Below are positions 5,543 to 22,669 of a stretch of DNA of 32,000 nucleotides, piece after piece. Each line of letters starts with the position of its first letter. Positions within the stretch are counted from its first letter, which is position 1. The DNA lies in assembly GCF_000020385.1 (NCBI RefSeq), contig NC_010814.1, positions 1,590,001 to 1,622,000 on the forward strand, given 5' to 3'. The translations under genes and the position numbers were made by a program. The notes beneath the pieces were generated by a model. It worked only from the letters and a program-made list of their open reading frames with translations. It was not told the DNA's origin and did no database searches. Origin of the DNA: Trichlorobacter lovleyi SZ (GTDB lineage Bacteria; Desulfobacterota; Desulfuromonadia; Geobacterales; Pseudopelobacteraceae).

Positions 5543-5558
5543 CGGTTTGGAGTGCTTG

Positions 5559-6446: not shown

Positions 6447-7622
6447 ATGCCAAGGATGTCTCCAGTGCTATCAACCGAGCCAACCGACTCACAACCGTCG
6501 AACCCTTCATTGCTTTTTCGCATTATTAATCGTCTGCGTGGCATAAATCGGCTTTTTTTGCTGGCGGTGTTTCTGCCCACGACAGTCGCTATCATCTACT
6601 TTGGATTTTTTGCCTCGGATATCTATATTTCAGAATCCCGCTTTGTTATTCGCAGTCCCCAAAAACAGACCCCCACCGGATTGGGAGCCTTTCTGCAAGG
6701 TGCAGGTTTCTCAAAGTCTCAAGATGATACTTACACGGTGCATGATTTTATTAACTCGCGTGATGCCCTGCAACAGTTGAATCAAAAATATGGCTTGTCA
6801 AGTCTCTACGCCAGTAGGGGAATTGACCGTCTCAGCCGGTTTGGCGGGTTGGACTCTGATACCAGTAACGAGGCGTTGCATCGATATTATCAAAAGAAAA
6901 TAGTCGAGGTCAGCAATGATAGTGCTTCATCGATTACGACCCTGCGGGTAAAGTCTTTTACTGCAGCTGACGCCCGCAGTCTGAATGCCAGTTTGCTGGA
7001 AATGAGTGAAAAACTGGTGAATCAGCTGAATGAACGTGGACGTCAGGACCTGATCATGTTTGCCCAATCAGAGGTGGCTACTGCTGAGGCAAAGGCCAGG
7101 GCAGCTGCCTTGGCGTTATCGAGCTATCGCAATAAAAAAGGGGTGTTTGATCCGGAGAAGCAATCGGCTCTGCAACTGCAACAGATTTCTAAATTGCAGG
7201 ATGAGCTGATTGCAGCCAAAACGCAGTTGGCCCAGGTTCGCTCGGTTACCCACAACAATCCCCAGCTACCCGTCCTGCAAAAACGTATAGATGTACTACA
7301 GGCAGAAATTTCTGTTGAAACAGCAAAAGTGGCAGGGGGGGATCGTTCGTTAAGTGGTCAGGCCGCAGAGTATGAGCGTCTGGCGCTTGAGCGTAGCTTT
7401 GCGGATAAACAGCTTGCAGCAGCGTTGGCGTCACTTGAGCAGGCACGCAATGAGGCCCAGCGCAAGCAGTTGTATCTTGAACGGATAGTGCAACCCAGCC
7501 TGCCGGATTACCCGGTGGAGCCGAAGCGGTTACGGTCCATCGTTTCGACCTTTGCGGTGGGGATGATCTGTTGGGGAATTTTGACCATGCTGATTGCCGG
7601 TGTGCGGGAACATCATAATTAA
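6447..7622 (+). CDS. kpsE: Capsule polysaccharide export inner-membrane protein (PCP-3 family, KpsE/CtrB/BexC-like)
   Basis: N-terminal TM helix followed by IYFGFFASDIYISESRFVIRSP and DTYTVHDFINSRDAL. There is a long coiled-coil periplasmic region and a C-terminal TM helix (IVSTFAVGMICWGILTMLIAG). It lies immediately upstream of kpsM and kpsT. Confidence 0.85.
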   Translation: MPRMSPVLSTEPTDSQPSNPSLLFRIINRLRGINRLFLLAVFLPTTVAIIYFGFFASDIYISESRFVIRSPQKQTPTGLGAFLQGAGFSKSQDDTYTVHDFINSRDALQQLNQKYGLSSLYASRGIDRLSRFGGLDSDTSNEALHRYYQKKIVEVSNDSASSITTLRVKSFTAADARSLNASLLEMSEKLVNQLNERGRQDLIMFAQSEVATAEAKARAAALALSSYRNKKGVFDPEKQSALQLQQISKLQDELIAAKTQLAQVRSVTHNNPQLPVLQKRIDVLQAEISVETAKVAGGDRSLSGQAAEYERLALERSFADKQLAAALASLEQARNEAQRKQLYLERIVQPSLPDYPVEPKRLRSIVSTFAVGMICWGILTMLIAGVREHHN

Positions 7623-7641: not shown

Positions 7642-7693
7642 GAGGCAAAGATTGCCTCTGTGTATCTCCGTGCCTCAGTGCGAGGCAGTTTTT
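7642..7693 (+). promoter_or_regulatory. Two hairpins built from the same hexamer; the second resembles a weak intrinsic terminator or attenuator between kpsE and kpsM
   Basis: GAGGCAA (7642-7648) pairs with TTGCCTC (7652-7658) across a 3-nt loop. TGCCTC (7671-7676) pairs with GAGGCA (7682-7687) across a 5-nt loop, followed by G + TTTTT (7689-7693). AGGAG at 7696-7700 is the RBS for the ATG at 7711. Confidence 0.35.
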
Positions 7694-7710
7694 GTAGGAG
7701 TTTTGTATAT

Positions 7711-8526
7711 ATGACCTTTTCCGAAGGTAAAGCACCCCAATATTCCTCCACGTTGCTACGCTCATTCCAGATCCAGCTGCGGGTGATCGGCGCCCTGCTG
7801 ATGCGTGAGGTGCTTACCCGCTATGGCCGCCACAATATCGGTTTTTTGTGGGTATTTGTTGAGCCGATGATTTTTACGTTGGGTGTAACTGCGCTTTGGA
7901 CTTTTGCTAAAATGCATCACAACTCCAGTATTCCGATTGTTGCCTTTGCCGTTACGGGTTATTCTTCAGTGCTGCTGTGGCGTAATATGCCTAACCGTTG
8001 TGTTGGTTCTATAGAGCCTAATCTTGCACTTATGTATCATCGAAACGTAAAGGTTATTGATGTTTTTGCTGCTCGAGTGTTGCTTGAAGCAGTTGGGGCT
8101 TCAACTTCTTTTATTATCTTGTCAGTTGTTTTTATTTCAATTGGCTGGATGCAGTATCCTCAGGATATTTTTAAGGTTCTGACTGGATGGTGCATGTTAG
8201 CATGGTTCGGTGCTTCAATTGCGGTTTTGATGGGAAGTCTCAATGAACGGACAGAAGTTGTTGAAAAACTCTGGCATCCTGCTACTTATCTGCTATTTCC
8301 GTTGTCAGGTGCCGCTTTTATGGTTGATTGGCTGCCTCCCACGGCACAAAAAATTATCCTGTTTTTACCAATGGTGCATGGTGTAGAAATTCTGCGTGAA
8401 GGTTATTTTGGTTCTCTTGTCCGGTCCCACTACAGTATTTCTTATATGGCTTCCGTTTGCTTGATCCTAAATGCACTTGCGCTTGCCCAGGAAAGGTATG
8501 TGAGTAAGAGGATAATCCCAGAATGA
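7711..8526 (+). CDS. kpsM: Capsule polysaccharide ABC transporter permease (ABC-2 type)
   Basis: Multi-TM ABC-2 permease with [24 protein letters not shown] near the N-terminus. The start is set at the ATG at 7711 (AGGAG 10 nt upstream) rather than the GTG at 7660. It overlaps kpsT by ATGA. Confidence 0.85.
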
Positions 8527-9173
8527 TTTGGATTAGAGATGTGGTAAAAAAATATTCTACCCGTCACGGCGTTGTAACTGTGCTTGATAATGTCAATTTG
8601 GACATCAATAAAGGAGAAAAAATTGGGATTTTAGGCAGAAATGGTGCTGGCAAGTCAACTCTTATCAGGCTTATCAGTGGTGCAGAGAAACCCACATCCG
8701 GGACAGTTCATTGGGGCATGAGTATTTCCTGGCCATTAGCTTTTACTGGAGGATTTCAGGGAAGTCTAACCGGATTAGATAATTTGAAGTTTATTTGTCG
8801 CATATATGGCATAGATGCAAGTAGTAAAATAGACTATATACAAGAGTTTTCTGAATTGGGTAGGTATTTGTACGAACCTCTTAAGACTTATTCTTCAGGG
8901 ATGCGTGCACGTTTAGCCTTTGCTCTTTCTATGGCAATTGATTTTGATTGTTTCTTGATTGATGAAGTGGTCGCCGTGGGAGATAGCCGATTTCATGAAA
9001 GGTGTAAACATGAGTTGTTTGAAAAGCGCAAGGAGAAAACCATGATTATTGTGTCACATCAATCCGATTTTATTAAGGCTCATTGTACTCGTGCTGCCGT
9101 GTTAGTAGCTGGTCGGATTCACCAGTTTGAGCAGGTAGATGAGGCTATGTCATTTTATCATGAGCATCTTTAA
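8523..9173 (+). CDS. kpsT: Capsule polysaccharide ABC transporter ATP-binding protein
   Basis: Walker [13 protein letters not shown] signature YSSGMRARL, Walker B CFLIDE and H-loop VSHQ. At 216 aa it has no C-terminal carbohydrate-binding extension. Confidence 0.9.
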
Positions 9174-9203
9174 AACAACTTTTAATGTTGCAAGGATACT
9201 TTG

Positions 9204-11777
9204 ATGGGTACGCGTGACACTGAATCTTCTACAACGTCAATTGCGATGCTACAGCGACAGGTAGCATCGCTGATACAATTGTCCGACCTCCTGGAGAAGC
9301 AGCAACAGTTGTCAATACACGAACGTTTTCAATCTGATCTTGCCCAGCGAGCTGTACTGCGCCAGACCTACAAGTCAAAAAAGAACTGGCGGATAATGCT
9401 GGATTTCAGACTTTTGAAAATGCGCAAACTACTCGAAGGATCTGTACTTTTTGATAGTGCGTTTTATCTGCACAACTACCCTGAGATCGCTTTGGCTGGC
9501 ATGGATCCCGTGATCCACTATCTGGAACATGGTGTATCCGGCTATTACGATCCACATCCGCTGTTCTCAACACGCTGGTATCTTAAGCTCTATCCCGATG
9601 TCGCTGCAAGCGGTATAAACCCTCTGCTTCATTTCATCGAATTTGGTGCTAGGGAATTCCGCGTACCTCATCCTCTTTTTGATCCGTGTTTGTATGTCAG
9701 TCAGTATCCGGACGTCTTTAACTCTGGGATGAATTTATTAGAGCATTACGTCCGTTTTGGGGGGGACGAAGGTCGTCGTCCGCATTGGCTTTTTCACGCC
9801 CAAGCCTATCTGGAACATTATCCGGAAATCAGGGGGTCGGGCATGACGCCACTTGAACACTACTGCAGGTACGGCAGAGGCTCTGTTTATCAAGTGCACC
9901 AGCTGTTCAATCCCGTTTTTTATCTGTCACGTTATGTAGATGTGCTTGAACAGTCGGATAATCCTTTGATCCACTATCTTGTAACAGGTGCCGATGAAGG
10001 CCGTGATCCCAGTTCTACTTTTTCCACTGAATCATATCGTAAGCAGTTTCCTGACCTGAAACGTGCCGGTATCAATCCGCTGGTTCACTTTGCAAGTAGA
10101 ATTGACTACCGGTGGTTTATGGCAGGCACCAATGAGACCGGTGAGTCACTGGAAAGAGTGAATTGCGAGTCTGTTGTATCTCAACTTGCTGATTTATCGA
10201 CACAGCCACTTATCAGTGTTGTCATGCCGGTTTACAATACACCACTCAGGTATTTGAAAGAGGCCATCGACAGTGTTATTGCTCAGGTTTATAAAACGTG
10301 GGAACTCTGCATTGTAGATGATGCTTCAACAGATTCAGAGATCAAGGGGCTGCTTCAGGAATACGAACGGTCTGACTTGCGTATTAAGGTAGTATTTCGA
10401 GAGAACAATGGCAACATATCAACCGCAACCAACTCAGGGTTTGAACTGGCAGCAGGTGAATACATCGCTTTGCTTGATCATGATGATCTTCTTACCTGGG
10501 ATGCGCTTGCTGAGGTTGTTCTGGCCATCAACGCGGATCCTGATAGTGATATTTTATATTCGGATCAGGACAAGATTGATGAATTCGGAGCACTGTCCGA
10601 GCCTTTTTTTAAGCCTGACTGGTCGCCGGATTATTTCTGTAGGGTAATGTATGTCGGGCATCTGCTGGTTTTTCGTCGCAACCTTCTGGATAAGGTGGGG
10701 GGGTGTGATCCCCGCTTCGATAAGGTGCAGGATTATGAGCTGATGCTTCGCCTGTCTGAAGTCGCTCGAAAGATCCACCATATCCCTAGAATCCTTTATC
10801 ATTGGCGAACACTTGAGGGAAGTGTAGCGCGAGACCCACACGGGAAAAGTGATATTGATCAACTGCAGGTCGAAGCAGTGTCTGCTGCATTTGAGAGGCG
10901 AGATATTGCTGCAAAAATTCAGCCCCATTCGGTTTTCAGCCATCGGGCAGTTATTGTACCTGCTGACCGTGTTGACTGGCCGCTCGTTTCAATAATTATC
11001 CCCACTAAGGATGCTCCGCAGCATATAGGAAGGTGTCTTGAATCCATCTACACCCGATCAACCTATCCAAATTATGAGGTCATTGTGATTGATAATAATA
11101 CCACTGACCCGGTAGCACGGCATATACTTGATAATACTCCGGCTAAACTAGTCAAATTTATTGATAAGTTTAACTATTCAAGAGCAAATAACATCGGTGT
11201 GCAGGAAGCAGCTGGCGAGTATGTCATTCTGCTGAATAATGATACGGAGGTTATCACTCCCCGGTGGATTGAATTTCTGTTGTTCGGCCTTGAACAGAAG
11301 GATGTGGCTGCAGTCGGCTCACTATTACTATATCCCGATAACACTGTGCAACACGCCGGTGTGGTACTCGGCTGCAGGGGGACGGCAGACCATGTCATGC
11401 GCTACTTCCCGGCCGATAGTGACGGATATGCGGGATCACTTTCATGTACACGGGAAGTTTCAGCTGTTACGGCGGCCTGCATGATGTGTCGTCGAGCCGA
11501 TTATCTCAGCTCAGGCAGCATGATTGAGTTTTTTGGGACACACTATCAGGATGTGGATTTTTGTCTTCGGCTGGCAGTAGGGGGGAAACGGATCTTGTTT
11601 GTTCCACAAGCAGTGCTGTACCACTACGAGAGTACAACCAGAGGAGCTGAGTATGACTATTTGGATCGCTTGCTGCTGCTAGATCTGTGGCAGGATCGAA
11701 TAACACAGGGAGATCCGTACTATAATCGAAACTTGTCTCTTGAATCTTTGGATTATCGTATCAAGGGGGCAGGGTAA
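9204..11777 (+). CDS. Large glycosyltransferase: N-terminal coiled segment, six ~38-aa repeats, then two tandem GT2 (GT-A) domains
   Basis: First GT2 domain: PLISVVMPVYNTPLRYLKEAIDSV...ELCIVDDASTD...LDHDDLL. Second GT2 domain: PLVSIIIPTKDAPQHIGRCLESI...VIVIDNNTTD...LLNNDTEV...VSAVTAACMM. The ATG at 9204 follows the TTG used by the ORF track. Confidence 0.8.
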   Translation: MGTRDTESSTTSIAMLQRQVASLIQLSDLLEKQQQLSIHERFQSDLAQRAVLRQTYKSKKNWRIMLDFRLLKMRKLLEGSVLFDSAFYLHNYPEIALAGMDPVIHYLEHGVSGYYDPHPLFSTRWYLKLYPDVAASGINPLLHFIEFGAREFRVPHPLFDPCLYVSQYPDVFNSGMNLLEHYVRFGGDEGRRPHWLFHAQAYLEHYPEIRGSGMTPLEHYCRYGRGSVYQVHQLFNPVFYLSRYVDVLEQSDNPLIHYLVTGADEGRDPSSTFSTESYRKQFPDLKRAGINPLVHFASRIDYRWFMAGTNETGESLERVNCESVVSQLADLSTQPLISVVMPVYNTPLRYLKEAIDSVIAQVYKTWELCIVDDASTDSEIKGLLQEYERSDLRIKVVFRENNGNISTATNSGFELAAGEYIALLDHDDLLTWDALAEVVLAINADPDSDILYSDQDKIDEFGALSEPFFKPDWSPDYFCRVMYVGHLLVFRRNLLDKVGGCDPRFDKVQDYELMLRLSEVARKIHHIPRILYHWRTLEGSVARDPHGKSDIDQLQVEAVSAAFERRDIAAKIQPHSVFSHRAVIVPADRVDWPLVSIIIPTKDAPQHIGRCLESIYTRSTYPNYEVIVIDNNTTDPVARHILDNTPAKLVKFIDKFNYSRANNIGVQEAAGEYVILLNNDTEVITPRWIEFLLFGLEQKDVAAVGSLLLYPDNTVQHAGVVLGCRGTADHVMRYFPADSDGYAGSLSCTREVSAVTAACMMCRRADYLSSGSMIEFFGTHYQDVDFCLRLAVGGKRILFVPQAVLYHYESTTRGAEYDYLDRLLLLDLWQDRITQGDPYYNRNLSLESLDYRIKGAG
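9450..10123 (+). repeat. Six tandem protein-level repeats (~38 aa each) inside the 9204 glycosyltransferase
   Basis: Consensus F....YL..YPD[VI]...G.NPL.H[YF]...G..EGR.PH.L is seen six times (FDSAFYLHNYPEIALAGMDPVIHYLEHG; FSTRWYLKLYPDVAASGINPLLHFIEFG; FDPCLYVSQYPDVFNSGMNLLEHYVRFG; FHAQAYLEHYPEIRGSGMTPLEHYCRYG; FNPVFYLSRYVDVLEQSDNPLIHYLVTG; FSTESYRKQFPDLKRAGINPLVHFASR). The repeats are diverged at the DNA level. Confidence 0.7.
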
Positions 11778-11781
11778 GATC

Positions 11782-12948
11782 ATGAATATTCTTTTTGTGG
11801 CATATTCCCAACTTAACTGCAACAGTGGTATTCATATCTTCAGTCTTGCAAATAACCTGGTGGAACTGGGGCATACGTGTGCTGTATGTGTGCCCGATCA
11901 ACCAGAGGCAACCGGCGACATCGGGACACCACGGTTTGCCACACTGTTGCTGGATCAGATCAAAGACAGACCGCTCATGTTCCCTGATGGCAGAGGTGCT
12001 GATGTAATCCACGCTTGGACACCTCGAGAGCTGGTGCGCCGTACTACTGAAAACCTGCTAAAACTTTACTCCTGTCCCTATTTTGTCCATCTTGAAGACA
12101 ATGAACAACACCTCACAGAACTCCATACTCGTATTTCAATCGCTCAGATGGCTAGATTGTCGTATGAAGAGCTTGATGCGCGTATCCCTTTGCACCTGAG
12201 TCACCCCCTTCGATCCCAGGATTTTCTGGCGGGTGCTGCCGGTGTAACCGTGCTTATTGATAAACTTCTTACGAATGTACCGCAAGAAGTTCCGGGATGC
12301 GTTATCTGGCCTTCATTTGATGAATCTCTTAACTGGGCGATACCCTGCGATAATAAGTTAAGGAGAGAGATCGGCATTGCTTCGACCGATTATGTGATTA
12401 CCTATACCGGCAATGTCCATTCAGCGAATCGCAGCGAGGTTCTTAGTCTGTATATAGCAGTTGCTCTACTGAACAGGAGTGGTGTAACCACTAAACTGGT
12501 CCGCACTGGCAGTGATTATATACCCTTATGCGATGCCGTTGGAATGGCAGAGTTCGAAACGTTTCTTATCGAACTTGGTTTTATTCCGAGAAAGGATATG
12601 CCAAAGGTGCTCTCTATTGCAGATGTTTTAGTTCAACCTGGTCGATCTGACAATTTTAACGATTACAGGTTCCCGTCAAAACTGCCGGAATATTTTGCAA
12701 GTGGAAAACCTGTTCTCATTCCGGCAACAAATATAGGACGATATGTAAAGGATTCAGTGGATTGCATTCTGCTTAAGCGCGGTGATGCGTGTGAGATCGC
12801 CACTCAACTGATGTCACTATTACCGGATGTGGAACGCCGCCGACAGCTCGGCACGAATGCGCTTGAGTTTGCCAGGCTATATTTTAGCTGGCAGAAGAGT
12901 TCCAAAATCCTAGCCGACTTCTACACCACTAAGAGGAATGATACATGA
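11782..12948 (+). CDS. Glycosyltransferase family 4 (GT-B, 'group 1')
   Basis: N-terminus MNILFVAYSQLNCNSGIHIFSLANNLVELGH and a C-terminal nucleotide-sugar-binding region FPSKLPEYFASGKPVLIPATNIG. The ATG at 11782 lies 5 nt after the upstream stop. The stop overlaps the next gene's start (ATGA). Confidence 0.75.
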   Translation: MNILFVAYSQLNCNSGIHIFSLANNLVELGHTCAVCVPDQPEATGDIGTPRFATLLLDQIKDRPLMFPDGRGADVIHAWTPRELVRRTTENLLKLYSCPYFVHLEDNEQHLTELHTRISIAQMARLSYEELDARIPLHLSHPLRSQDFLAGAAGVTVLIDKLLTNVPQEVPGCVIWPSFDESLNWAIPCDNKLRREIGIASTDYVITYTGNVHSANRSEVLSLYIAVALLNRSGVTTKLVRTGSDYIPLCDAVGMAEFETFLIELGFIPRKDMPKVLSIADVLVQPGRSDNFNDYRFPSKLPEYFASGKPVLIPATNIGRYVKDSVDCILLKRGDACEIATQLMSLLPDVERRRQLGTNALEFARLYFSWQKSSKILADFYTTKRNDT

Positions 12949-13679
12949 AACTCATGGAAATATATGCACAGTATGCGACACCAACGTTGAGTTATGCCAC
13001 GGTCCGTGATTATTGCGACAGCTTTGATAATCTGAACTATCTGGCGACCACAAACTGTGATTTGAAAGACGTCCAGCGGCCCTGGGTTGTGAAGAGCATT
13101 ATTAGTAAAATGCCGCCAGGCTCACGCCTGTTGGAAGTAGGTGCTGGCCAGCCGCTTGTGGCTGATGTGCTGGTTAAACTTGGCTATCAGGTTACTGTTG
13201 TTGACCCGTATGATGGTTCCGGGAATGGCCCCAGTGAATATGAGGATTTTAAATCGAGATATCCAGATATAACAATCATACGCAAACGGTTTTCAGATGA
13301 TTTGCAGGAGCTGGAGACGGAATCATTCGACTGCATCTACTCAATATCGGTCATCGAACATGTTCCCATTTCTGCAATCCCGAATATTTGTAATGGTATC
13401 AGGAAGTTTTTGAAGCGAGGCACAGGAAGGCATATCCATGCAATTGATTATGTCTTGAAAGGCGTTGGCGATGTCTATGCTCTTCAGCTTTTGCATCATT
13501 TTACAGATGCGTTTGGCGTACAACAGCAGGTAGTTGACGATCTGATAAGAAGTGCAGCAGATGACTGTGAAACCTATTTCCTTTCCGCCGAAGCGCATAA
13601 CCGTTGGAAAGGCGCAGTAAAATACGATGATTTTCCTATGCGGCGTGTTATATCTTTACAGCTGTCCTTGCCTTTGTGA
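12945..13679 (+). CDS. Class I SAM-dependent methyltransferase
   Basis: Motif I SRLLEVGAGQPLVADVL, acidic post-I YQVTVVDP, and motif II/III FDCIYSISVIEHV. Confidence 0.75.
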   Translation: MKLMEIYAQYATPTLSYATVRDYCDSFDNLNYLATTNCDLKDVQRPWVVKSIISKMPPGSRLLEVGAGQPLVADVLVKLGYQVTVVDPYDGSGNGPSEYEDFKSRYPDITIIRKRFSDDLQELETESFDCIYSISVIEHVPISAIPNICNGIRKFLKRGTGRHIHAIDYVLKGVGDVYALQLLHHFTDAFGVQQQVVDDLIRSAADDCETYFLSAEAHNRWKGAVKYDDFPMRRVISLQLSLPL

Positions 13680-13841: not shown

Positions 13842-15617
13842 ATGAAAAATAACAAGACAGATAGAGGTTTTCAATCTCCTCACCGAGTAGCACTGCTTGT
13901 AGCTGGTATGCATAGGAGCGGTACATCCGCTCTTACAAGGATACTCAATCTGCTGGGGGCACAGCTACCCAGTAATCTGTGGCAGCCTCAGGAGGATAAT
14001 GTTACTGGTTTTTGGGAGTCTCAGAATGTTACACGCCTCAATGATGAACTGCTGGCTGAGGCTCATTCCTGTTGGGACAGCATTCTTCCCATTGACTTTA
14101 GTCAGGTGAATCCCGAACAGTTTGAGCTTCTCAGAAGGCGCGCGCAAGATCTTCTCGAGCGGGACTTTGCTGGTTCCTCCTGCTTTGTTATCAAAGACCC
14201 TCGTATGTGTCGACTGCTACCATTTTGGGTTTCTATCTTGAAGGAATGGGAAGTGCAACCCTATGTAATTGTGCCATACCGCCATCCCCTTGAGGTTGCA
14301 GCATCTTTGGCTCAGCGCAATGGCTTTTCACGTGAGAAAAGTATCTATATGTGGCTGCGCTATACGTCAGACATTATAAGACATTCTGCAAACATCCCGC
14401 GAGCAGTAGTCTCCTACAATGATCTTCTGCGTGATTGGCAAAGCACTGTTCAAAATCTTGCCAAAGATCTAGATATCTGCTGGCCTGTGAATATTGAGTC
14501 AATTACTGGAATGGTTGGAGATTTTCTTGATATCCGGATTCGTCATCACAATTTAGACGGTTCTACAGTGGGTAGCGGACGTTTCATCGATCGTCTCGCA
14601 GATCAACTTTATACAGCGTTAAATTCAAAGAGTAAAAAGCTAGCATCTCTTGCTGAGTCAATCAATCAGACACTTACTCCGATGGAACAGGTGCTGGCAC
14701 CCTTTATAGTCAATGAGCCTTCGCAGAAAAAAATGTGGATGCAGCTTTATTTTGATGTGGGTGACGGTTTCGTTGTGAAAGACTCAATCGTGAATATGAT
14801 CAAACCAGAAGAGGTTTCGCAAGAAATCGTTTTTGATCTCGCGGGAAAGGGGCGTCTTAGAGCACTTCGTCTTGACCCGCTCAACGACAGTGTGAGGCTT
14901 GAAATTGAAAGTATCTGTCTCTTTACTGCAGAAGGTGAAATCGATTTGCTTGGTCGAATTAAGTCGAATGCCCGCCTCGTGCTCGGAAACGAGTATTTTT
15001 TTGAGACGTCTGACCCGCAGATCACTTTTGATTGCCTCGGAGAGGTGGAGCTGGCCAATGCAAGACAACTATTTGTTAAGATTCACTTCATTGCTTCCGG
15101 GACCGATGCTGTTTTCCACTCGCTGAGGCAACTTAACATTGAGAAGGATTTACATATCGACCAGCTCTTATCAGAGTTGGGTGATGTGCAACATTTCCTG
15201 ATTCAGGCAAAAGAGAATCGATTGAACGATCCGTCTATTACCAAGGTGGATGCGACTCTCTCGTCAGTAGCCGAAGGTTTAGCAGAACATGCGAAATATC
15301 ATAGTTATCTTCTTGAGCAGACCAGAGTTTTGGATGCGGCATACAAGAAAGAATTTAGTTCAGCAAATAAGTGTCGAGAAGAACTTGCAAATCTTCTTGA
15401 GCAGACCAGAGTTTTGGATGCGGCATACAAGAAAGAATTGAGTTCAGCAAATCAGTACCGAGAAGAAGTTACACTATTACGTAAAAAAATAGATGAACAG
15501 CGAACAGAATTTCAAACGCAGTCATCTGCTCTTTTGCTATTAACTAACCAGGTTGACTACACACATGAAATTATTAAAAACTGGCGAAAATACCATTTGC
15601 TAAAAGATCTTTTGTAA
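13842..15617 (+). CDS. Sulfotransferase (aa ~15-290) plus a beta-rich middle module (aa ~298-420) plus a C-terminal coiled coil (aa ~430-591)
   Basis: 5'-PSB loop VALLVAGMHRSGTSALTRIL and 3'-PB-like VIVPYRHPLEVAASL. The C-terminal third is heptad-like, charged and Leu-rich, and contains a 28-aa tandem duplication. Confidence 0.8.
   Translation: MKNNKTDRGFQSPHRVALLVAGMHRSGTSALTRILNLLGAQLPSNLWQPQEDNVTGFWESQNVTRLNDELLAEAHSCWDSILPIDFSQVNPEQFELLRRRAQDLLERDFAGSSCFVIKDPRMCRLLPFWVSILKEWEVQPYVIVPYRHPLEVAASLAQRNGFSREKSIYMWLRYTSDIIRHSANIPRAVVSYNDLLRDWQSTVQNLAKDLDICWPVNIESITGMVGDFLDIRIRHHNLDGSTVGSGRFIDRLADQLYTALNSKSKKLASLAESINQTLTPMEQVLAPFIVNEPSQKKMWMQLYFDVGDGFVVKDSIVNMIKPEEVSQEIVFDLAGKGRLRALRLDPLNDSVRLEIESICLFTAEGEIDLLGRIKSNARLVLGNEYFFETSDPQITFDCLGEVELANARQLFVKIHFIASGTDAVFHSLRQLNIEKDLHIDQLLSELGDVQHFLIQAKENRLNDPSITKVDATLSSVAEGLAEHAKYHSYLLEQTRVLDAAYKKEFSSANKCREELANLLEQTRVLDAAYKKELSSANQYREEVTLLRKKIDEQRTEFQTQSSALLLLTNQVDYTHEIIKNWRKYHLLKDLL
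15307..15474 (+). repeat. 84-bp in-frame tandem duplication (2 copies) within the coiled-coil tail of the sulfotransferase
   Basis: ATCTTCTTGAGCAGACCAGAGTTTTGGATGCGGCATACAAGAAAGAATT.AGTTCAGCAAAT occurs at 15307 and again at 15391 (offset 84 nt), with about 3 mismatches over the first ~66 nt. The encoded peptides are LLEQTRVLDAAYKKEFSSAN and LLEQTRVLDAAYKKELSSAN. Confidence 0.9.
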
Positions 15618-15707: not shown

Positions 15708-17954
15708 ATGAGCAGCGTGTCCGCTATTGTCAGAAAATTCCAATTTATTTTCATAGCTATATTGGATAATCTCCTTAAACTGGTGCTGTCACGCAAGAAC
15801 CTTTCTGTAAAACTTCTCCCTGAACAAAATATTGTGTCTGACAACGAAAATGGCTGGTGGATTACAAATACTCCTGCGTATTTTGCACTTCAAATTGAGA
15901 ACGGACTCTATCCCCATGGCTGGTTCTATATTGAAGGCGTTCTGCACCGCTACAGCTTGACTAGGGCTAAGCTGTACTACAATGACGGCACCGGGTTCTC
16001 TACAGATAATTATTTTTTCATTCCTGTTACGCGTCGTGGATATATACGTGAAGTGATTTTTCTTCCTTTGGGTGTCATCGGATTGCGTTGGGCGCCGGTA
16101 GATTCATCCGGATTCTTTATCCAACAGAGCTTCTCTATTGCGCGCATTACTTACTTAGAGGCCTTACTGAGGGCTTTATATCGTGTTTTATACGACTTTA
16201 AACGTTTTTTCCGAGTCGCAGAACGTCGAGTAGAGGCTGTTAAAAAGTTGCTACGACCATTATTGCATTTTAAGTTGTGGCAGGCATATCGCAATACCAT
16301 TGATTTTAGAGTTTTTGACACTACGTCTCGCACATGTGATGAATTGTGGCATGCATACCAAGCCTCATTACAACAGCTACTCCCTCAACTGACTACTCAT
16401 GCTCTGTCTTTGAAAGATCATCCTTTGATTTCTGTTGTGGTCTCACTGCCGGAGTTATCCGAAGAAAAGCTTGGTAGTTTGATTTGTTCACTTCAACAGC
16501 AGATTTATCCGCATTGGGAGTTGATTGTCTACAATGATGGTAATGAATTTTGTGACCAGTGTCTTGATATGGGTGTGGATTGCTCTGATACACGTCTGAT
16601 TATTATAAATAGTGAATCAGGTGAAGCATGGAAGAGAGCACAAGGACGTTATATTGTTGTTCTCGGTTCAGATGTTCTCCTTGAACCGCAGGCGCTTTTC
16701 AGAGTAGCCCAGACTTTTACAACAACCAATGCAGGGGTGTTGTATGGCGATGTCGCCCAGGTTGATCCTGAAGGTGAGACGGTGGTTGGGTTTAACTGTC
16801 GTCCTGCCTTTTCACCTGAACTGCTACGCTGCTATCCGTATGTGGATGATCTGTTGGCGTTTGATTGTAGTTTTCCGGAAGGATATAAGCCCCCTGCAGA
16901 TAGTTCTGGACGCTTGATAATTCATGATATGTTGCTGCAGGCATATATAACAGGTGCAGAAGTTGCTCATGTTGCTGAGTTTCTTTGCAAAAAAAAGTAT
17001 CACTCTGAACCTGCTGAGCAGGTCTGTACAACGTATAATCTTAAATCTGATTTACGGGTTGCCATCATCATACCAACAAAAAATGCCGCTGAGTTGGTTA
17101 AGCAGTGCATTGAAAGTCTGGAGCGCACGATTTCGGCAGGTGCTATTCCTTATACGATCATTGTCGTGGATCATGCCTCAGATGACCCTGCTGCGTTGCA
17201 GTATTTCAATGAACTCTCTGAGTTGCATTGTGTATTGCGGTATGAAGGCGATTTTAACTTCTCAACTATCAATAACTGGGCCGTAGGTCAACTAACAGAA
17301 AATTACACCCATTACCTGTTTTGTAATAATGATATCGAAGCGTTTCACAACGGCTGGCTTGAAACTATGCTTGGATTTGGCCAGCAGGATGATGTGGGGG
17401 TTGTTGGTGCACAGCTACTTTATCCAGATAAATTGCATATTCAACATGCTGGTGTTTGTGTTGGTCTGCATGGCCTCGCGGAACATTACGGTAAATTTTT
17501 ATCTACTGATGAGAAATACCGTGAATTGTTACACGCTGATGCACAGATAGCTTTAACGAGCCCCCATGAGGTGTCTGCCGTCACCGCTGCTTGCATGCTT
17601 GTGCGTAGGGATGCATTTGAAAAAGTTGGTGGGTTTGACGAGCAAATGGCTGTTGGTTTTGGTGATGTAGATCTCTGTCTACGGATAGGCGAGGCAGGCT
17701 ACCGGATTATCTATTCGCCAGATAGTTCGTTTGTGCACCATGAATCGCTTACAAGGGGCAAGGATATGGGAGATCCGCATCCTGAAGATACTATTGTTTT
17801 TAAAAAACGCTGGAAATCCTTACTGGAAAATGGCGATCCGTTTTACCATCCCGCTTATTCGTGTTATTCATTTAATTGGCAGTACGTTGATCCGCTGCCA
17901 TGTCGTTTTAGCCCTTCAATTCGGATGGTCTGTAGTATGCGAGGTGTGAGTTGA
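15708..17954 (+). CDS. Large glycosyltransferase: N-terminal beta-rich module plus two GT2-like domains (the first with degenerate motifs); paralog of the 9204 gene
   Basis: The second domain is canonical (LRVAIIIPTKNAAELVKQCIESL...IIVVDHASDD...FCNNDIEA...VSAVTAACML). The first domain is divergent (PLISVVVSLPELSEEKL...ELIVYNDGNE...VLGSDVLL). The C-terminal halves align with the 9204 protein (HAGVCVGLHG / HAGVVLGCRG; DPFYHPAYS / DPYYNRNLS). Confidence 0.8.
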   Translation: MSSVSAIVRKFQFIFIAILDNLLKLVLSRKNLSVKLLPEQNIVSDNENGWWITNTPAYFALQIENGLYPHGWFYIEGVLHRYSLTRAKLYYNDGTGFSTDNYFFIPVTRRGYIREVIFLPLGVIGLRWAPVDSSGFFIQQSFSIARITYLEALLRALYRVLYDFKRFFRVAERRVEAVKKLLRPLLHFKLWQAYRNTIDFRVFDTTSRTCDELWHAYQASLQQLLPQLTTHALSLKDHPLISVVVSLPELSEEKLGSLICSLQQQIYPHWELIVYNDGNEFCDQCLDMGVDCSDTRLIIINSESGEAWKRAQGRYIVVLGSDVLLEPQALFRVAQTFTTTNAGVLYGDVAQVDPEGETVVGFNCRPAFSPELLRCYPYVDDLLAFDCSFPEGYKPPADSSGRLIIHDMLLQAYITGAEVAHVAEFLCKKKYHSEPAEQVCTTYNLKSDLRVAIIIPTKNAAELVKQCIESLERTISAGAIPYTIIVVDHASDDPAALQYFNELSELHCVLRYEGDFNFSTINNWAVGQLTENYTHYLFCNNDIEAFHNGWLETMLGFGQQDDVGVVGAQLLYPDKLHIQHAGVCVGLHGLAEHYGKFLSTDEKYRELLHADAQIALTSPHEVSAVTAACMLVRRDAFEKVGGFDEQMAVGFGDVDLCLRIGEAGYRIIYSPDSSFVHHESLTRGKDMGDPHPEDTIVFKKRWKSLLENGDPFYHPAYSCYSFNWQYVDPLPCRFSPSIRMVCSMRGVS

Positions 17955-19729
17955 TGAGTATCTCCGCACTGTTTACCATAGCCGTTGTTCTGCTCATGTT
18001 GATTGCCCTGGTGCTGGAACTGATTGAAGCGGATGTGATTGTATTTGGTGCCCTTGCAGTTTTATTTATCAGCGGCATCATTACCCCCAAGGAGGCCTTG
18101 GCCGGTTTTTCCAATCAGGGAATGTTGACTGTTGCCATCTTGTTTATTGTCGCATACGCTGCTCAATCAGCCGGATTTATGCAGTTTTTTGCAGATCGTG
18201 TGATGGGCAACGGCAAAGGTGGTGAGGCCCGCTCTTTGTTGAGGATGATGGTTCCTGTTGCCGGTCTTTCGGCTTTTTTGAATAATACCCCCATCGTGGC
18301 CATGTTTACCCCCTACCTGCGGGACTGGTGTCGTCGCAACTACTTTGCTCCTTCAAAGTTTTTAATTCCCTTGTCGTACGCCACTATTTTTGGTGGCGTC
18401 TTTACTTTGATCGGTACCTCGACGAACCTGGTTGTGAGCGGTCTTTACAGCCAGAAGTACGGGGGGCATCTGGGGATGTTTGAGCTTGGTCTGGTTGGTA
18501 TTCCCTGTGGAATTGCAGGAATGTTGTATCTGTACTTTGCCGGGCGGCATCTCTTGCCTGATAATCGTGTTGAAGGCGTTAGCGCGGATGAAGGACGTGA
18601 ATATCTACTTGAAGTCGAGATCGCGGATGCTGCCAGCTTGATTGGCAAGACCGTTGAAGCCGCCGGATTGCGCAATCTTGAACAGTTGTATATGGTTGAG
18701 ATCGTTCGCAATAACAAACGGATTGCGCCGGTTAAGCCACAGGAATATCTGCAAACGGGTGATCGCCTTATTTTTACCGGTAAGGTGGAAGGGGTAGCTC
18801 AATTGCAGAAAATTGGTGGGTTGCGGCCAGTACATGGACATAACCTGCATCAGGAGCTGTTACAGAATGGTGAGGCCAGACTGGTTGAGGTGGTTGTGTC
18901 TCCTTCTTGTCCCATGCTGGGCAAAACTATCAAAGAAGGGAACTTTCGGGCACGCTACGATGCTGCAGTGCTGGCGGTACATCGACATGGTGAGCGTTTA
19001 AGGGGCAAGTTGGGAGAACTGGTGCTGAGGCCGGGTGATACTCTGCTGCTACTTACTGGCGATGACTTTATCAAACGTTGGAATTTCTCCCGAGAATTCT
19101 ACTTGGTATCCAAAATTAGCAACCTCCCTCGGGTTAACCGTAAAAAATCAATCATTACTTTTTGTGCCTTAGTTGCAATGGTAGCACTTTCCGCAGCGGG
19201 TTTGATGGATATCTTAGAGGCTGCCGTACTTGCAACACTTGTATTGTTGTTTACACGGTGCATTACAACAGTTGAGGCTCGGCGATCAATTGAACTGAAC
19301 GTGTTGATTGTGATTGCTTCTTCCTTTGGTATCAGTAAAGCACTGGAGAAAACCGGGGCTGCTGCCTGGCTGGCGGATCAAATTATTGGCTCTGTGGAAC
19401 AATGGGGAGCGGTCGGGGTTTTAGCTGCCATTTGCCTGATAACAACCATATTAACAGAGGTGATTACCAATAATGCTGCTGCTGCGGTTATCTTCCCGAT
19501 TGCCATGGCATCGGCTCATCAGTTACAGGTTGATCCAAAACCGTTTGTGATCGCTATTGCCATTTCGGCTTCGGCCAGTTTTGCCACCCCAATCGGTTAC
19601 CAGACCAATATGATGGTATATGGTCCTGGTGGCTATCGTGCAAAAGATTTTTTAAAGGTCGGCGTTCCACTTAATATTATATATATGGTTGTGTCGATTC
19701 TTGTTATCCCGCTTTTCTGGAAGTTTTAG
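17954..19729 (+). CDS. SLC13/DASS-family anion permease with two central TrkA-C domains (putative sulfate importer)
   Basis: About 10-12 hydrophobic helices flank two TrkA-C-like units ([22 protein letters not shown]...GDRLIFTG and [22 protein letters not shown]...GDTLLLLTG). Its ATG overlaps the upstream TGA (TGATG). It sits directly upstream of cysD. Confidence 0.8.
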
Positions 19730-19757
19730 TTGCTGTTATTTCGGAGCCATAACTGAC

Positions 19758-20663
19758 ATGTACCTTAATATGACCCATCTGCGCCAGCTTGAGTCCGAAA
19801 GCATTCATATTATTCGCGAAGTTGTCTCAGAATGTGAAAATCCGGTCATGCTCTATTCGATTGGCAAAGATTCTTCGGTTATGTTGCATCTGGCGTTGAA
19901 GGCCTTTTACCCTGCAAAACCATCATTTCCTTTAATGCATATTGATACCACCTGGAAGTTTCGAGAGATGATTAGCTTCAGGGACCAAATGGCGTCAGAG
20001 TATGGCTTTGATCTGCTGGTACATATCAATCAGGATGGCGTTGATCAAGGGATCAGTCCGTTTAAGCATGGTTCAGCGCTCTATACGGATATTATGAAAA
20101 CGGAGGGACTCAAGCAGGCGTTGAGCAAATACAAGTTTGATGCAGCCTTTGGTGGAGCACGCAGGGATGAAGAAAAATCAAGGGCTAAAGAACGGATTTT
20201 TTCTTTTCGTAGCGCGAACCATGGTTGGGACCCCAAGAACCAGCGTCCAGAATTATGGAACCTATACAACACCCGCGTCAATCCAGGAGAGAATATTCGA
20301 GTTTTTCCACTCTCAAATTGGACTGAACTTGATGTCTGGCAGTACATCTATCTTGAGCAGATCCCAATTGTACCGCTTTATTTTGCCAAACAGCGTCCGG
20401 TAGTGAAGCGAAATGGCATGCTAATACTGCTTGATGATGAGCGACTGAAGCTGCAGCCTGGTGAACAGGTGCAGATGAAGCCGGTTCGGTTCCGTACGCT
20501 AGGCTGTTATCCTTTGACGGGAGCAATAGAGTCTACTGCAGCGACTTTGCCTGAGATCATTCAGGAAATGCTGCTGACCAGAACTTCTGAGAGACAAGGG
20601 CGTCTGATTGACCACGATCAGGCCGGATCTATGGAAAAGAAAAAGCAAGAGGGCTATTTCTGA
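19758..20663 (+). CDS. cysD: Sulfate adenylyltransferase subunit 2
   Basis: [18 protein letters not shown], the PP-loop-like [14 protein letters not shown], and a C-terminal [12 protein letters not shown] all closely match CysD as I remember it. The start is set at the ATG at 19758 (19770 is also possible) instead of 19689, which overlaps the permease. Confidence 0.9.
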
Positions 20664-22606
20664 TGTCCCATCGACCCAATCCCATAGCCTCTGATATCAA
20701 TGCTCACCTGAAAAGCCAGGAAGAGAAGGGAATGCTGCGCTTTGTCACTTGTGGCAGTGTTGACGATGGGAAAAGTACCTTGATAGGGCGCTTGCTATGG
20801 GACTCTAAGCTGATCTTTGAAGATCAGCTTACTGCCTTGGAAGCAGATAGTAAACGGGTCGGGACGCAAGGGGGAGAGATTGATTATGCCCTTCTGCTGG
20901 ATGGTCTGCAGGCAGAGCGTGAGCAGGGTATCACTATCGATGTTGCTTATCGCTTTTTCTCAACGGACAAGCGCAAGTTTATAGTTGCGGATACGCCGGG
21001 TCATGAACAGTACACTCGTAACATGGTTACTGGTGCTTCTACTGCGGATGTTGCCGTGATTCTGGTTGATGCCCGGAAGGGGGTGTTGACACAAACCAGG
21101 CGGCACAGCTATCTGGTCTCTTTAATGGGAATCCGTCAGGTGGTTCTGGCTGTTAACAAGATGGATCTGGTGAATTTTTCTGAATCCTGTTTTCAGGCTA
21201 TTCGTGAGGAATACGAGTCTTTTGCTGCCGGTTTGGGGTTTACCTATATCACGTCTATCCCAATTTCAGCTCTTCAGGGCGATAATGTCATCGGTGCAGC
21301 GACTCCGTCTAAAACCCTTCCAGCCTCCAGTTTGCATCCTTCATCCTCCGGCTCAAACATGCCGTGGTATGATGGTCCAACTTTAATGGAGTATCTGGAA
21401 ACTGTTGATGCTGTGCATGACACTTTGAACCAGCCGTTCAGGATGCCGGTGCAGTGGGTTAATCGCCCAAATCTTGATTTCCGCGGGTTCTGCGGGACGC
21501 TCGCCTCAGGTCGGGTGCGGCTTGGTGATGAGATTGTCGTGGCTGCTTCAGGTAAGACCAGCCGGGTGGCACGGATTGTAACCATGGACGGCAACCTTGA
21601 TCAGGCAGATGCTGGACAGGCGGTTACACTTATGCTTGAAGACGAAATTGATATCAGCCGTGGTGATCTTTTGGCAGATCCATCGGCTCGTCCTGCATTT
21701 GCTGATCAATTAGAGGCTTGTATTGTCTGGATGTGTGAAAACGCATTGATGGCTGGTCGCAAATATCTTCTGAAAAGTGGCTGCAGTACTGTTCCTGCAG
21801 CAGTAAGTGCTCTTAAATACAAGATTAATGTTAATTCATTGCAGCATGAACCGGCAAAAAGACTGGAGTTGAATGAAATAGGGGTCTGTAATCTGGTGCT
21901 GGACAGACCGATCACCTTTGATCCCTATTGTGAGAATCACACTACCGGTAGTTTTATCCTGATCGACCGTATCAGTAATGCAACCGTTGGTGCCGGTATG
22001 ATTAATTTTGCCTTGCGTCGGGCAACAAACGTACATTGGCATACAGAACAGGTTACACGCGATATCCGGGCCGGTTTGATGGGGCAGTCTCCCCGTGTTA
22101 TCTGGCTGACCGGGCTTTCCGGTTCCGGTAAGTCTACCATTGCCAATGCTCTTGAACAGAGGCTTGTACAGCTTGGAAGGCATACCATGCTGTTGGATGG
22201 AGATAATATCCGCCACGGTTTAAATAAGGATCTTGGTTTTACCGAGGCGGACAGGATTGAGAACATCAGGCGTATCGGTGAGGTGGCCAAGTTAATGACC
22301 GAGGCTGGTCTTGTTGTTATTACCGCCTTTATTTCGCCGTACCGTGCCGAGCGTGAGATGGTGCGTAATCTGCTTCCAGAAGATGAGTTTATCGAGGTGC
22401 ATGTCAGCACTTCTCTGGAAGAGTGTGAGCGGCGTGATGTCAAGGGGCTGTATAAGAAAGCACGTATGGGGAGTATTCCTAACTTTACCGGAATCAGTGC
22501 TCCCTATGAGGAGCCGGTGTCGCCAAGTCTTGTGATTGATACTGAGCTGGTTGCTGTTGAAGAGGCTGTGGACAGGATTCTTGAATCCATTGGTTTCAAC
22601 CGCTAA
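20663..22606 (+). CDS. cysNC: Bifunctional sulfate adenylyltransferase subunit 1 (GTPase) / adenylylsulfate (APS) kinase
   Basis: GTPase motifs [17 protein letters not shown] and NKMD. The C-terminal APS kinase has P-loop GLSGSGKST and [16 protein letters not shown]. The start overlaps the cysD stop (TGATG). Confidence 0.9.
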
Positions 22607-22669
22607 ATGTGGTAGACAGGGACGAAGGCTGAAGGAATTATGATTGAGATTGGGAGAGTTAAACGCACT

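Follow-up and report, generated by a model that had tools for sequence, protein, structure and literature searches.

For Kps-type (group 2/3) capsules, no agreed mechanism of chain-length control is known. The window analyzed here, a stretch of 32,000 nucleotides from the genome of Trichlorobacter lovleyi SZ, raises this question through a single gene, whose product the original prediction described as a sulfotransferase on a coiled-coil stalk and as a possible WbdD-like ruler that caps chains with sulfate. Does this protein terminate the chains of a capsule polymer, or is its sulfate placed elsewhere? The gene and its neighbors in the window are as follows.

3066 to 3839, plus strand: second sulfotransferase, without a stalk, 257 aa, 18% identity to the head of the stalked protein
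6447 to 7622, plus strand: kpsE
7660 to 8526, plus strand: kpsM
8523 to 9173, plus strand: kpsT
9201 to 11777, plus strand: dual-GT2 protein
11740 to 12948, plus strand: GT4
12945 to 13679, plus strand: stand-alone SAM methyltransferase
13842 to 15617, plus strand: sulfotransferase, beta-sandwich and helical-stalk gene (ATG start, 591 aa, WP_012469586.1)
15708 to 17954, plus strand: dual-GT2 polymerase-like protein, directly downstream of the stalked sulfotransferase
17951 to 19729, plus strand: CitMHS/SLC13-type anion permease
19689 to 20663, plus strand: cysD (PAPS supply)
20663 to 22606, plus strand: cysN-cysC fusion (PAPS supply)
22640 to 23833, plus strand: kpsD
23835 to 25001, plus strand: GT4
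25023 to 26126, plus strand: kpsS
26127 to 27353, plus strand: kpsC

The Kps set is complete, with KpsM, KpsT, KpsE, KpsD, KpsS and KpsC all found by Pfam and NCBIfam profiles (BexC/CtrB/KpsE at 3.9e-115, ABC2_membrane, ABC_tran, Poly_export with SLBB, and Capsule_synth twice). The kpsEMT, kpsD and kpsSC genes, five GT genes, cysD/cysNC and the anion permease are all co-directional. Judged by its gene content, this is a Kps-type (group 2/3-like) capsule locus with its own PAPS genes, and we regard that context as established. Lipid genes resembling wcb were also observed, at 27350-31826. The stalked sulfotransferase gene lies between GT genes, where the locus is serotype-specific and low in GC, 4.7 kb downstream of kpsM and kpsT and with multi-domain GTs on either side; a scan for promoters and terminators around it found such sites no more frequent than chance. 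Pfam confirmed the methyltransferase and the dual-GT2 protein that had been named as its immediate neighbors. It likewise bore out the caveat that KpsT has no carbohydrate-binding extension: the 216-aa protein is an ABC domain alone, without a carbohydrate-binding module (CBM), so cap-gated export is not expected in this locus. Because the locus holds a second sulfotransferase and two methyltransferases, roles are not uniquely assignable among them, and literature searches found nothing on T. lovleyi, a structure of its polymer included.

The 591-aa product is identical to NCBI WP_012469586.1/ACD95244.1, named 'sulfotransferase family protein'; its head has hundreds of homologs at 37-48% identity. 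Searched whole against the sequences of the PDB, the protein gave no match. A recheck upheld the open reading frame and every descriptive element that had been given for it. The order of its parts is established as a PAPS-sulfotransferase head, a beta-sandwich, a long helical stalk and a short conserved tail, placed as follows.

13884 to 14627, plus strand: PAPS-dependent sulfotransferase head, predicted (aa ~15-262; Pfam Sulfotransfer_3 at aa 19-214, model and Foldseek)
13905 to 13928, plus strand: 5'-phosphosulfate-binding loop GMHRSGTS (aa 22-29), unchanged throughout alignments of 33 and of 54 sequences
14280 to 14306, plus strand: 3'-phosphate-binding motif RHPLEVAAS (aa 147-155), with R147, P149 and S155 invariant
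14640 to 14729, plus strand: linker helix and low-confidence connector (aa ~267-296; helix 267-304 in AlphaFold)
14730 to 15101, plus strand: beta-sandwich module (aa ~297-420; domain model pLDDT 93.9)
15102 to 15215, plus strand: first stalk helix (aa 421-458), ended by an NDPS break in the AlphaFold models
15234 to 15611, plus strand: main stalk helix (aa 465-590), a probable coiled coil by AlphaFold and hydrophobic periodicity
15307 to 15467, plus strand: 84-bp tandem duplication in the stalk, 1.9 copies, 94% matches
15570 to 15614, plus strand: conserved C-terminal tail IIKNWRKYHLLKDLL (NWR.Y.LL type), common to the homologs P0002, P0004, P0129 and P0149

The sulfotransferase fold and motifs of the head are established. 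Both motifs that had been picked out are present, and an alignment of 33 homologs leaves G22, H24-A30, R147, P149 and S155 invariant. The Pfam Sulfotransfer_3 (PF13469) score is marginal, at 28.4 bits for a cutoff of 27, and an NCBIfam search of the 591-aa protein returned no match. AlphaFold models the head with pLDDT above 90, and all 19 of its significant PDB neighbors in Foldseek (E 2e-6 to 1e-3) are PAPS sulfotransferases, including TPST, the CurM/OLS ST domains, Stf9 and 3-OST. The best of these share just 11-16% sequence identity with it, a resemblance at the level of the fold. Motifs and modelled fold together confirm the prediction of a sulfotransferase domain at the N terminus.

The beta-rich module of about 120 aa reported behind the head is real, and is modelled on its own as a well-defined beta-sandwich; in the full-length model pLDDT falls below 50 over aa 293-315. 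Its conserved positions read QLY/F.D.G.GF, LR.DPLND, SNA and YFF.T.DPQ. Neither Pfam nor a profile search of PDB sequences matched the module, Foldseek found no significant neighbor in the PDB (best E 0.05) and a BFVD search gave nothing interpretable, so that naming it a CBM or a lectin would be unjustified. It occurs in 305 representative proteins from a library of 1.8 billion, where it is joined also to methyltransferases, GT99 and a pyruvyltransferase, and in 53 of 150 carriers a helix-rich stretch directly follows it. Because these partners represent known terminator chemistries, we counted them in favor of a capping ruler. From sequence comparisons, the beta-sandwich is an undescribed domain common to many glycan-modifying enzymes, and it merits a family entry of its own.

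The Leu-rich, heptad-like segment described for the C terminus takes the form of two helices (aa 420-458 and 465-590) in the models. The main one runs for 126 residues without interruption at pLDDT 70-88, would measure about 19 nm if straight, and contains no Pro and a single Gly. The strongest period in its hydrophobicity spectrum is exactly 3.50 (z = 2.8-3.4), a strength reached by 10-13 of 1000 shuffles, and we take this periodicity as established. The 3.50 period and the Pro-free helix moderately support a coiled coil, which we infer to be oligomeric. The same periodicity is weak (z = 1.65) in P0002 and missing from P0004, the two closest beta-module homologs. A crude heptad score based on a/d occupancy did not separate the stalk from globular domains, and spectral analysis was used instead. 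At the protein level the 84-bp duplication gives a repeat unit of 28 aa, or four heptads, LLEQTRVLDAAYKKE.SSAN..REE. Four metagenome contigs carry one copy of this unit and are otherwise identical to the T. lovleyi sequence. They depart from it only by an indel of exactly four heptads in the stalk, which we counted in favor of a ruler.

Two of the proteins that share the C-terminal tail differ from the T. lovleyi protein in their heads: P0129 is a methyltransferase-beta-coil protein, and P0149 has the beta module without any Pfam head. In WbdD of E. coli IAI1 (O8) the coil is followed by SRSWRITQPLR and then by a basic/hydrophobic tail, and the SWRxTxPLR motif of that protein ends 37 of 143 stand-alone homologs of the sulfotransferase-coil (ST-coil) family. 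The T. lovleyi tail, NWRKYHLLKDLL, belongs to the small NWR.Y.LL group; it resembles the WbdD motif only loosely and aligns with it out of register. The protein ends 8 residues past the WR of this tail, and scans detected in it neither a transmembrane segment nor a helix of strong amphipathicity at the C terminus (muH at most 0.49). Three homologs have a C-terminal transmembrane helix.

The loci of the homologs establish a context and architecture like those of WbdD and WbbB. In 8 of 80 of them, the ST-coil gene is preceded, at a distance of 0-1.8 kb, by a gene for a Wzt with a Pfam Wzt_C CBM (E 1e-22 to 1e-29); this reproduces the order wzm-wzt-wbdD and suggests WbdD-like behavior of the family. 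The locus of Rhodanobacter geophilus (L041) reads rml...wzm-wzt(CBM)-ST-coil-dual GT2-WsaF, matching the wzm-wzt-wbdD-wbdA order of E. coli O8. A scan of ten neighboring ORFs there revealed neither a methyltransferase nor a kinase, and the R. geophilus ST-coil protein terminates in a transmembrane helix. Fusion to glycosyltransferase domains is common among 54 homologs (GT2 in at least 17, GT4 in 10, RgpF in 4). A sulfotransferase, a helix-rich stretch and GT domains lie within single polypeptides in L016, L021, L036 and L046; the layout is ST, coil, GT2, GT2 in L016 and L021, and ST, a Glyco_trans_1_2 domain and GT25 in L036. By analogy, this large and uncharacterized family looks like a sulfate-adding counterpart of the WbdD and WbbB terminators of ABC-transporter-dependent glycans. 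By a crude measure, stalks had medians of 218 helix-like residues in Kps-type loci and 121 in Wzt_C-type loci, a trend only (Mann-Whitney p = 0.065) that was set aside. A tblastn search of plasmids matched head domains only. With the methyltransferase-beta-coil protein P0123 as query, E. coli plasmid genes aligned to the methyltransferase head and left the beta module uncovered.

WbdD of E. coli O9a and O8 and of Klebsiella O3 and O5 carries a kinase-methyltransferase or a methyltransferase on a coiled-coil molecular ruler. The T. lovleyi protein resembles it in having a small-group transferase head at the N terminus, a long helical stalk and a C-terminal tail, and in being encoded as a separate protein in the company of an ABC transporter and multi-domain GT polymerases. 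Members of its family also occupy the position of X in the order wzm-wzt-X-polymerase and carry the post-coil SWRxTxPLR motif. In contrast to WbdD, its head is a predicted PAPS sulfotransferase rather than a SAM methyltransferase or kinase, a beta-sandwich is inserted between head and stalk, the tail holds only the loose motif variant, and the protein is known here from sequence and models. The locus pairs it with KpsMT, an exporter lacking a CBM, and its acceptor is presumably linked to a Kdo-lipid made by KpsS/KpsC, not to undecaprenyl-PP. In Klebsiella pneumoniae O12 WbbB, a GT99 beta-Kdo terminator, a coiled coil and two polymerase GTs are combined. Many ST-coil homologs share that layout with a sulfotransferase in place of GT99, and the beta module of the T. 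lovleyi protein also occurs in proteins containing GT99. Unlike in WbbB, the polymerase-like GTs of T. lovleyi are encoded by separate flanking genes (9201-11777 and 15708-17954), and sulfate would take the place of Kdo as the cap.

Systems with Kps transporters offer two further comparisons. Group 3 kps clusters of E. coli reportedly carry putative methyltransferases with coiled coils of variable length (PMC13171606). Like the T. lovleyi protein, these would be small-group transferases on length-variable coils in Kps loci without a CBM; their chemistry is methyl, not sulfate, and function is only putative in both. The Kps and PAPS loci of Cobetia marina KMM 1449 and Vibrio sp. KMM 8419 produce capsules that are sulfated on every repeat, which in Cobetia is ->4)-a-L-Rhap2S-(1->3)-b-D-Manp6PGro-(1->. 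As in these loci, kps transport, PAPS synthesis and one or more sulfotransferases are found together in T. lovleyi, and wcb-like genes are present in Cobetia as well. KpsS of Mesorhizobium loti is cited in PMC11625862 as a characterized capsule sulfotransferase with fucosyl-sulfotransferase activity. Unlike for the T. lovleyi protein, no stalk is described for the Cobetia, Vibrio or M. loti sulfotransferases in their papers.

We propose that the 13842-15617 product is a cytoplasmic, PAPS-dependent polysaccharide sulfotransferase held on a beta-sandwich and a probably coiled-coil stalk of about 19-25 nm, and that it is a candidate chain terminator and ruler, a reading to which we give nearly an even chance. 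The tail would dock the stalk at a membrane-bound polymerase complex formed by the flanking dual-GT2 and GT4 enzymes, which would work on a Kdo-lipid primer made by KpsS/KpsC. Only when a growing chain is long enough would its non-reducing end reach the distal head. The head would then sulfate a position required for the next glycosyl transfer and elongation would stop, after which the chain would leave through KpsMT, KpsE and KpsD, its cap unread. At the level of the family, the idea of a sulfate-capping, WbdD-like ruler is favored by the Wzt_C loci, the GT fusions and the SWRxTxPLR endings. For the T. lovleyi gene itself it is favored by the layout of head, spacer, stalk and tail, and the CBM-less KpsT, the loose tail and the second sulfotransferase speak against it. 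Literature searches gave no instance of a bacterial glycan capped by a terminal sulfate. Nor did they find relevant work joining a sulfotransferase to WbdD, Wzt, a coiled coil or chain termination, the terminator census in Glycobiology 2019 (Mann, Kimber, Whitfield) being outside their coverage.

A terminal acceptor is the point on which this reading parts from an in-chain one, which we consider quite possible though less than probable, and in which one sugar of every repeat, or of many, receives sulfate during synthesis while the stalk and beta-sandwich only oligomerize or tether the enzyme and length is set elsewhere. The Cobetia and Vibrio loci combine Kps, PAPS and wcb genes with per-repeat sulfate and have sulfotransferases among their GT genes, and because such comparable loci have solved capsules sulfated on every repeat we counted them against capping. 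The characterized M. loti enzyme and the CBM-less KpsT also agree with in-chain sulfation, and the GT-fused family members could equally be polymerase-coupled modifying modules. Yet a head some 20 nm from the anchoring end would be badly placed to modify each added repeat, and the compact, stalk-less sulfotransferase at 3066-3839 could already do that job. Homologs at the wbdD position beside a CBM-bearing Wzt, with the post-coil motif of WbdD, also argue against it. The T. lovleyi locus has its own sulfate permease and cysD/cysNC, which might be read as a sign of sulfation on every repeat. We dropped this argument, since in several homolog loci cysDN/C lies beside an ST-coil protein that is the sole sulfotransferase detected, so that dedicated PAPS genes do not discriminate. 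Where sulfate is assimilated via APS, a bacterium with any sulfotransferase must also have an APS kinase.

Sulfate might also be added to the non-reducing end or the membrane-distal part of the chain merely to diversify the antigen, with polymerization and export unaffected. The modelled stalk geometry favors distal acceptors, KpsT has no CBM to read a cap, and the terminal pyruvate of Klebsiella O1 provides a precedent, but the passage on that precedent mentions no coiled coil for the pyruvyltransferase. The T. lovleyi stalk is long, conserved and variable by whole heptads, and homologs fused to polymerases or adjoining a CBM-bearing Wzt point to a function linked with termination; we find decoration of this kind improbable. 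An acceptor other than the capsule polymer, such as the Kdo-lipid primer, a wcb-derived lipid or a protein, would reduce the clustering with kps to a shared supply of PAPS. Protein-tyrosine and polyketide sulfotransferases are among the best structural neighbors of the head and the wcb-like genes are close by, but those structural matches are at the level of the fold. The gene lies between GT genes in the serotype-specific region, its homologs include fusions with GT2, GT4 and RgpF domains, and its beta module travels with glycan enzymes, all of which makes such an acceptor very unlikely indeed.

Should the sulfate-capping ruler prove correct, it would extend the known cap chemistries. For ABC-transporter-dependent glycans, the caps established by experiment comprise methyl, phosphomethyl, beta-Kdo and pyruvate. 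Sulfate would be a new addition and would explain a large, unannotated sulfotransferase-coil family. A stalked terminator in a Kps locus without a CBM would make capsule length control directly testable. A wider reading, which we think rather unlikely in its entirety, is that sulfate is a so far unproven chain-terminating cap, that a family of sulfotransferase rulers extends across Proteobacteria, Cyanobacteria, Actinobacteria and other phyla, that the T. lovleyi member sets capsule length without a CBM checkpoint, that whole-heptad stalk indels tune length between strains, and that the beta-sandwich reads or holds the chain end. The Wzt_C-bearing loci of homologs, as in Rhodanobacter and Dyella, would be more tractable for studying sulfate capping and sulfate-specific CBMs. 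The stalk alleles with one and two repeats represent a natural test of the ruler.

The target gene's open reading frame was confirmed as real, and an exact-sequence look-up matched its product to WP_012469586.1/ACD95244.1 of Trichlorobacter lovleyi SZ (formerly Geobacter lovleyi), annotated 'sulfotransferase family protein'; three further proteins of the window map to that genome. This annotation is generic and covers neither the stalk nor the beta module, nor a link at family level with systems that have a carbohydrate-binding module (CBM) on Wzt. A literature search for T. lovleyi and sulfotransferase together found no paper, and scans of the gene's surroundings for promoters and terminators gave nothing above chance. 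The protein is composed of the following parts.

13842-15617, plus strand: target gene, 591 aa
aa ~15-262: sulfotransferase head
aa ~297-420 (window 14730-15101): beta-sandwich, after a linker helix
aa 420-458 and 465-590: stalk helices of the AlphaFold model, with an NDPS break between them
last 15 residues, IIKNWRKYHLLKDLL: tail, a small conserved motif

The N-terminal sulfotransferase domain of the original prediction was borne out with both of its named motifs, GMHRSGTS at aa 22-29 and RHPLEVAAS at aa 147-155. In homolog alignments the key residues of both are invariant, and so are E59, R124 and the KDPR block at 118-121. Pfam Sulfotransfer_3 matches the head barely above threshold (28.4 bits against 27), while the fold is supported by an AlphaFold model with pLDDT >90, whose significant PDB neighbours are all PAPS sulfotransferases. 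The predicted beta-rich module of ~120 aa is likewise present; modelled on its own from an alignment of related sequences, it reached a pLDDT of 93.9, and it matched nothing in Pfam or, by sequence and by fold, in the PDB. Searching a library of 1.8 billion proteins placed the module in 305 representative proteins, some with 2-5 tandem copies, and a helix-rich stretch follows it directly in 53 of 150 carriers. Its partner domains are methyltransferases (~9 of 74), GT99 (4), a pyruvyltransferase, sulfotransferases (5) and polymerase-type glycosyltransferases (GTs), and tandem modules are often C-terminal in GT2, GT4, methyltransferase, GT99, sulfotransferase and pyruvyltransferase proteins. The module resembles an accessory domain, so far undescribed, of enzymes that assemble glycans.

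The heptad-like C-terminal segment was recovered as a helix at 465-590 with no proline and one glycine, in which hydrophobic periodicity, scanned over periods 2-8, is strongest at exactly 3.50 (z = 2.8-3.4, a value that 10-13 of 1000 shuffles attained). Such a period is that of coiled-coil heptads and is moderate evidence for a coiled coil; it is weak or absent in the two closest homologs sharing the beta module. If straight, the 126-residue helix would span ~19 nm. The tail motif is common to the two closest full-length homologs, to P0129, which joins a methyltransferase head to the same beta-plus-coil cassette, and to P0149, which carries the beta module and no Pfam head. Against the post-coil motif of WbdD the tail aligns out of register and is at best a loose variant of it; the C-terminus of the target has no transmembrane segment and is not strongly amphipathic.

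Within the stalk lies an 84-bp tandem duplication (15307-15467; 1.9 copies, 94% matches) that encodes two 28-residue copies, each exactly four heptads long. The same locus is found on four contigs (L001-L004) from two independent sequencing projects, and their proteins differ from the target only by the absence of one 28-aa copy. L001, the sole contig compared base by base, is 99.95-100% identical to the window over 10 kb, with no mismatches within the target gene and the precise deletion of one repeat copy as the sole difference. Five positions distinguish the two repeat copies, and the four one-copy assemblies agree with each other; the shorter stalk may reflect true polymorphism between strains or collapse of the repeat in short-read assembly. 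These stalk alleles make the putative ruler role of the target testable. Coiled coils of varying length have been described in putative methyltransferases of E. coli group 3 kps clusters, in a paper on E. coli capsule typing (PMC13171606), and this similar variation suggests that small-group transferases on stalks occur more widely in Kps systems.

Searching 5.8 billion proteins returned 915 hits, conserved in the head (37-48% identity over aa ~15-260) and variable in the remainder. Of the proteins at 80 loci taken from representative genomes, nearly all have the head at the N-terminus and, behind it, a long extension containing helix-rich stretches. Pfam detected fused GT domains among 54 homologs (GT2 in 17, GT4 in 10, RgpF in 4) along with scattered coiled-coil families, so that by sequence the family has two layouts, a stand-alone head and stalk resembling WbdD, and a fusion of head, stalk and polymerase GTs resembling WbbB. 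About seven other homolog loci are also Kps-type; proteins with a sulfotransferase head and coil (ST-coil) in Kps-type loci (L029, L034, L071, L078) often end in a motif different from that of WbdD, LFDA..Y....PDVA..G.DP..HY..HG..EGR, which also occurs as repeats in other homologs. Cereibacter sphaeroides 2.4.1 and relatives carry head homologs (~41% identity), annotated 'sulfotransferase' only, on ~124-kb plasmids (e.g. NZ_CP030273.1 76368-77042).

In eight of the 80 loci (L016, L021, L027, L036, L041, L046, L073, L077) the sulfotransferase gene is preceded, at a distance of 0-1.8 kb, by one for a Wzt ATPase that carries a genuine carbohydrate-binding Wzt_C domain (E 1e-22 to 1e-29). According to the Whitfield-lab literature, the Wzt CBM binds the terminal cap, so that only terminated chains are exported. 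The Rhodanobacter geophilus S2-g locus (L041) runs rml, wzm, wzt(CBM), a 430-aa ST-coil protein, a dual GT2 and a WsaF-like rhamnosyltransferase, the same order as wzm-wzt-wbdD-wbdA in the O8 cluster of E. coli IAI1, and the ten neighbouring ORFs scanned include no methyltransferase or kinase. Its ST-coil protein has a transmembrane helix at the C-terminal end directly after the repeat-containing coil, which gives the head-distal, anchor-proximal geometry that a ruler needs. In O8 WbdD (L085 43456-44733) SRSWRITQPLR comes after the coil, and SWRxTxPLR ends 37 of 143 stand-alone ST-coil homologs and many beta-module carriers. L036 (sulfotransferase, Glyco_trans_1_2, GT25) and L016 and L021 (sulfotransferase, coil, GT2, GT2) mirror WbbB, and the partner chemistries of the beta module are those already known as caps. 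Together these observations make it likely that many systems of the O-polysaccharide type use sulfate as a cap that terminates the chain. Our literature search, the census of Mann, Kimber and Whitfield (2019) aside, found no report of sulfate as such a cap.

L041 7760-13189 is, from its genes, a clean candidate for a sulfate-capped rhamnan O-polysaccharide, and its coil has near-exact internal repeats (EQW...RESEA.QHHA). The SRSWRITQPLR motif of O8 WbdD also closes many sulfotransferase-, methyltransferase- and GT-headed coil proteins of unrelated bacteria, and may mark a polymerase-recruitment or membrane region generally. The wb cluster of Aeromonas salmonicida (PMC4483657) has a gene for a 216-aa sulfotransferase-domain protein, flanked by a 438-aa Wzt and a WbbB homolog; its authors report no sulfate in the O-antigen structure, and a single terminal sulfate per chain would easily be missed in such an analysis.

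The target lies among the co-directional genes of a capsule locus, with GC of ~0.53-0.55 in the flanks against 0.35-0.47 in the serotype-specific middle.

2216-2938: ORF with no family match
3066-3839: second sulfotransferase, compact, upstream of the target
4064-5542: methyltransferase fused to a sulfatase/alkaline-phosphatase-like domain
5547-6395: GT2/GT92-like gene
kpsE, kpsM, kpsT: KpsT of 216 aa, ABC domain only
between kpsT and the target: dual-GT2 protein, GT4, SAM methyltransferase
directly after the target: second dual-GT2 protein
then: anion permease, cysD, cysN-cysC fusion
downstream end: kpsD, GT4, kpsS, kpsC, then wcb-like genes

The methyltransferase before the target and the dual GT after it had been described correctly, as had the KpsT without a carbohydrate-binding extension. 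Since the locus holds two sulfotransferases (18% identity between the second and the target head) and two methyltransferase domains, one of them in the sulfatase-like fusion adjoining the second sulfotransferase, the work could be divided among them in several ways. Where APS is reduced directly, an organism requires APS kinase for any enzyme that depends on PAPS. Dedicated PAPS genes were dropped as a sign of per-repeat sulfation, several loci pairing cysDN/C with a lone detected ST-coil sulfotransferase.

Our tentative reading, which falls a little short of probable, is that the target is a capping and ruler enzyme of the capsule chain. In Kps systems chains grow at the non-reducing end on a Kdo-lipid primer made by KpsS and KpsC, and the chain would elongate in the same way here. 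We infer that the stalk would oligomerise and be docked by its tail at the membrane-associated polymerase complex, so that the chain end would reach the distal head only past a certain length; sulfation of this terminal acceptor would block the next glycosyl transfer and set chain length, and KpsMT would export the chain without reading the cap. The original prediction of a sulfate-capping analog of WbdD and WbbB is partly supported, mostly by homologs, which behave like them in their Wzt_C loci, SWRxTxPLR endings and GT fusions, and less so for the target, which is alike in architecture but has a Kps-type exporter, a KpsT without CBM and an out-of-register tail. We do not class it as a WbdD/WbbB member because its locus departs from classical CBM-gated export and its coiled coil and C-terminal recruitment region are not clear-cut; its sulfotransferase head, added undescribed beta-sandwich and Kps-type context set it apart. 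A sulfate cap and ruler in a Kps capsule system would, if true, be noteworthy to specialists.

Sulfation within the chain, with the stalk as a scaffold, is a serious if doubtful alternative to capping: the capsules are sulfated within the repeat unit in both published loci that resemble this one in make-up and have a solved capsule structure, those of Cobetia marina KMM 1449 and Vibrio sp. KMM 8419. Terminal or distal decoration without control of length, like the Klebsiella O1 pyruvate cap, is unlikely, and an acceptor other than the capsule is highly improbable.

The stretch 2216-6395, with four genes, is the lowest-GC part of the locus (0.35-0.39), and the methyltransferase and phosphotransferase-like pair at 4064-5542 is, by its domains, reminiscent of methyl-phosphate capping enzymes. 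The presumed sulfate importer at 17951-19729 is of neither the CysPUWA nor the SulP type: it is a CitMHS/SLC13-type permease carrying two TrkA_C domains, and the last ~40 bases of its gene overlap the beginning of cysD. After kpsC, 27350-31826 holds a Burkholderia/Cobetia wcb-like set (SDR, LtaS/sulfatase-like, formyltransferase-like), with a BioF/Kbl-type acyltransferase on the minus strand; the Cobetia paper assigns the wcb set to 'lipid carrier' synthesis.
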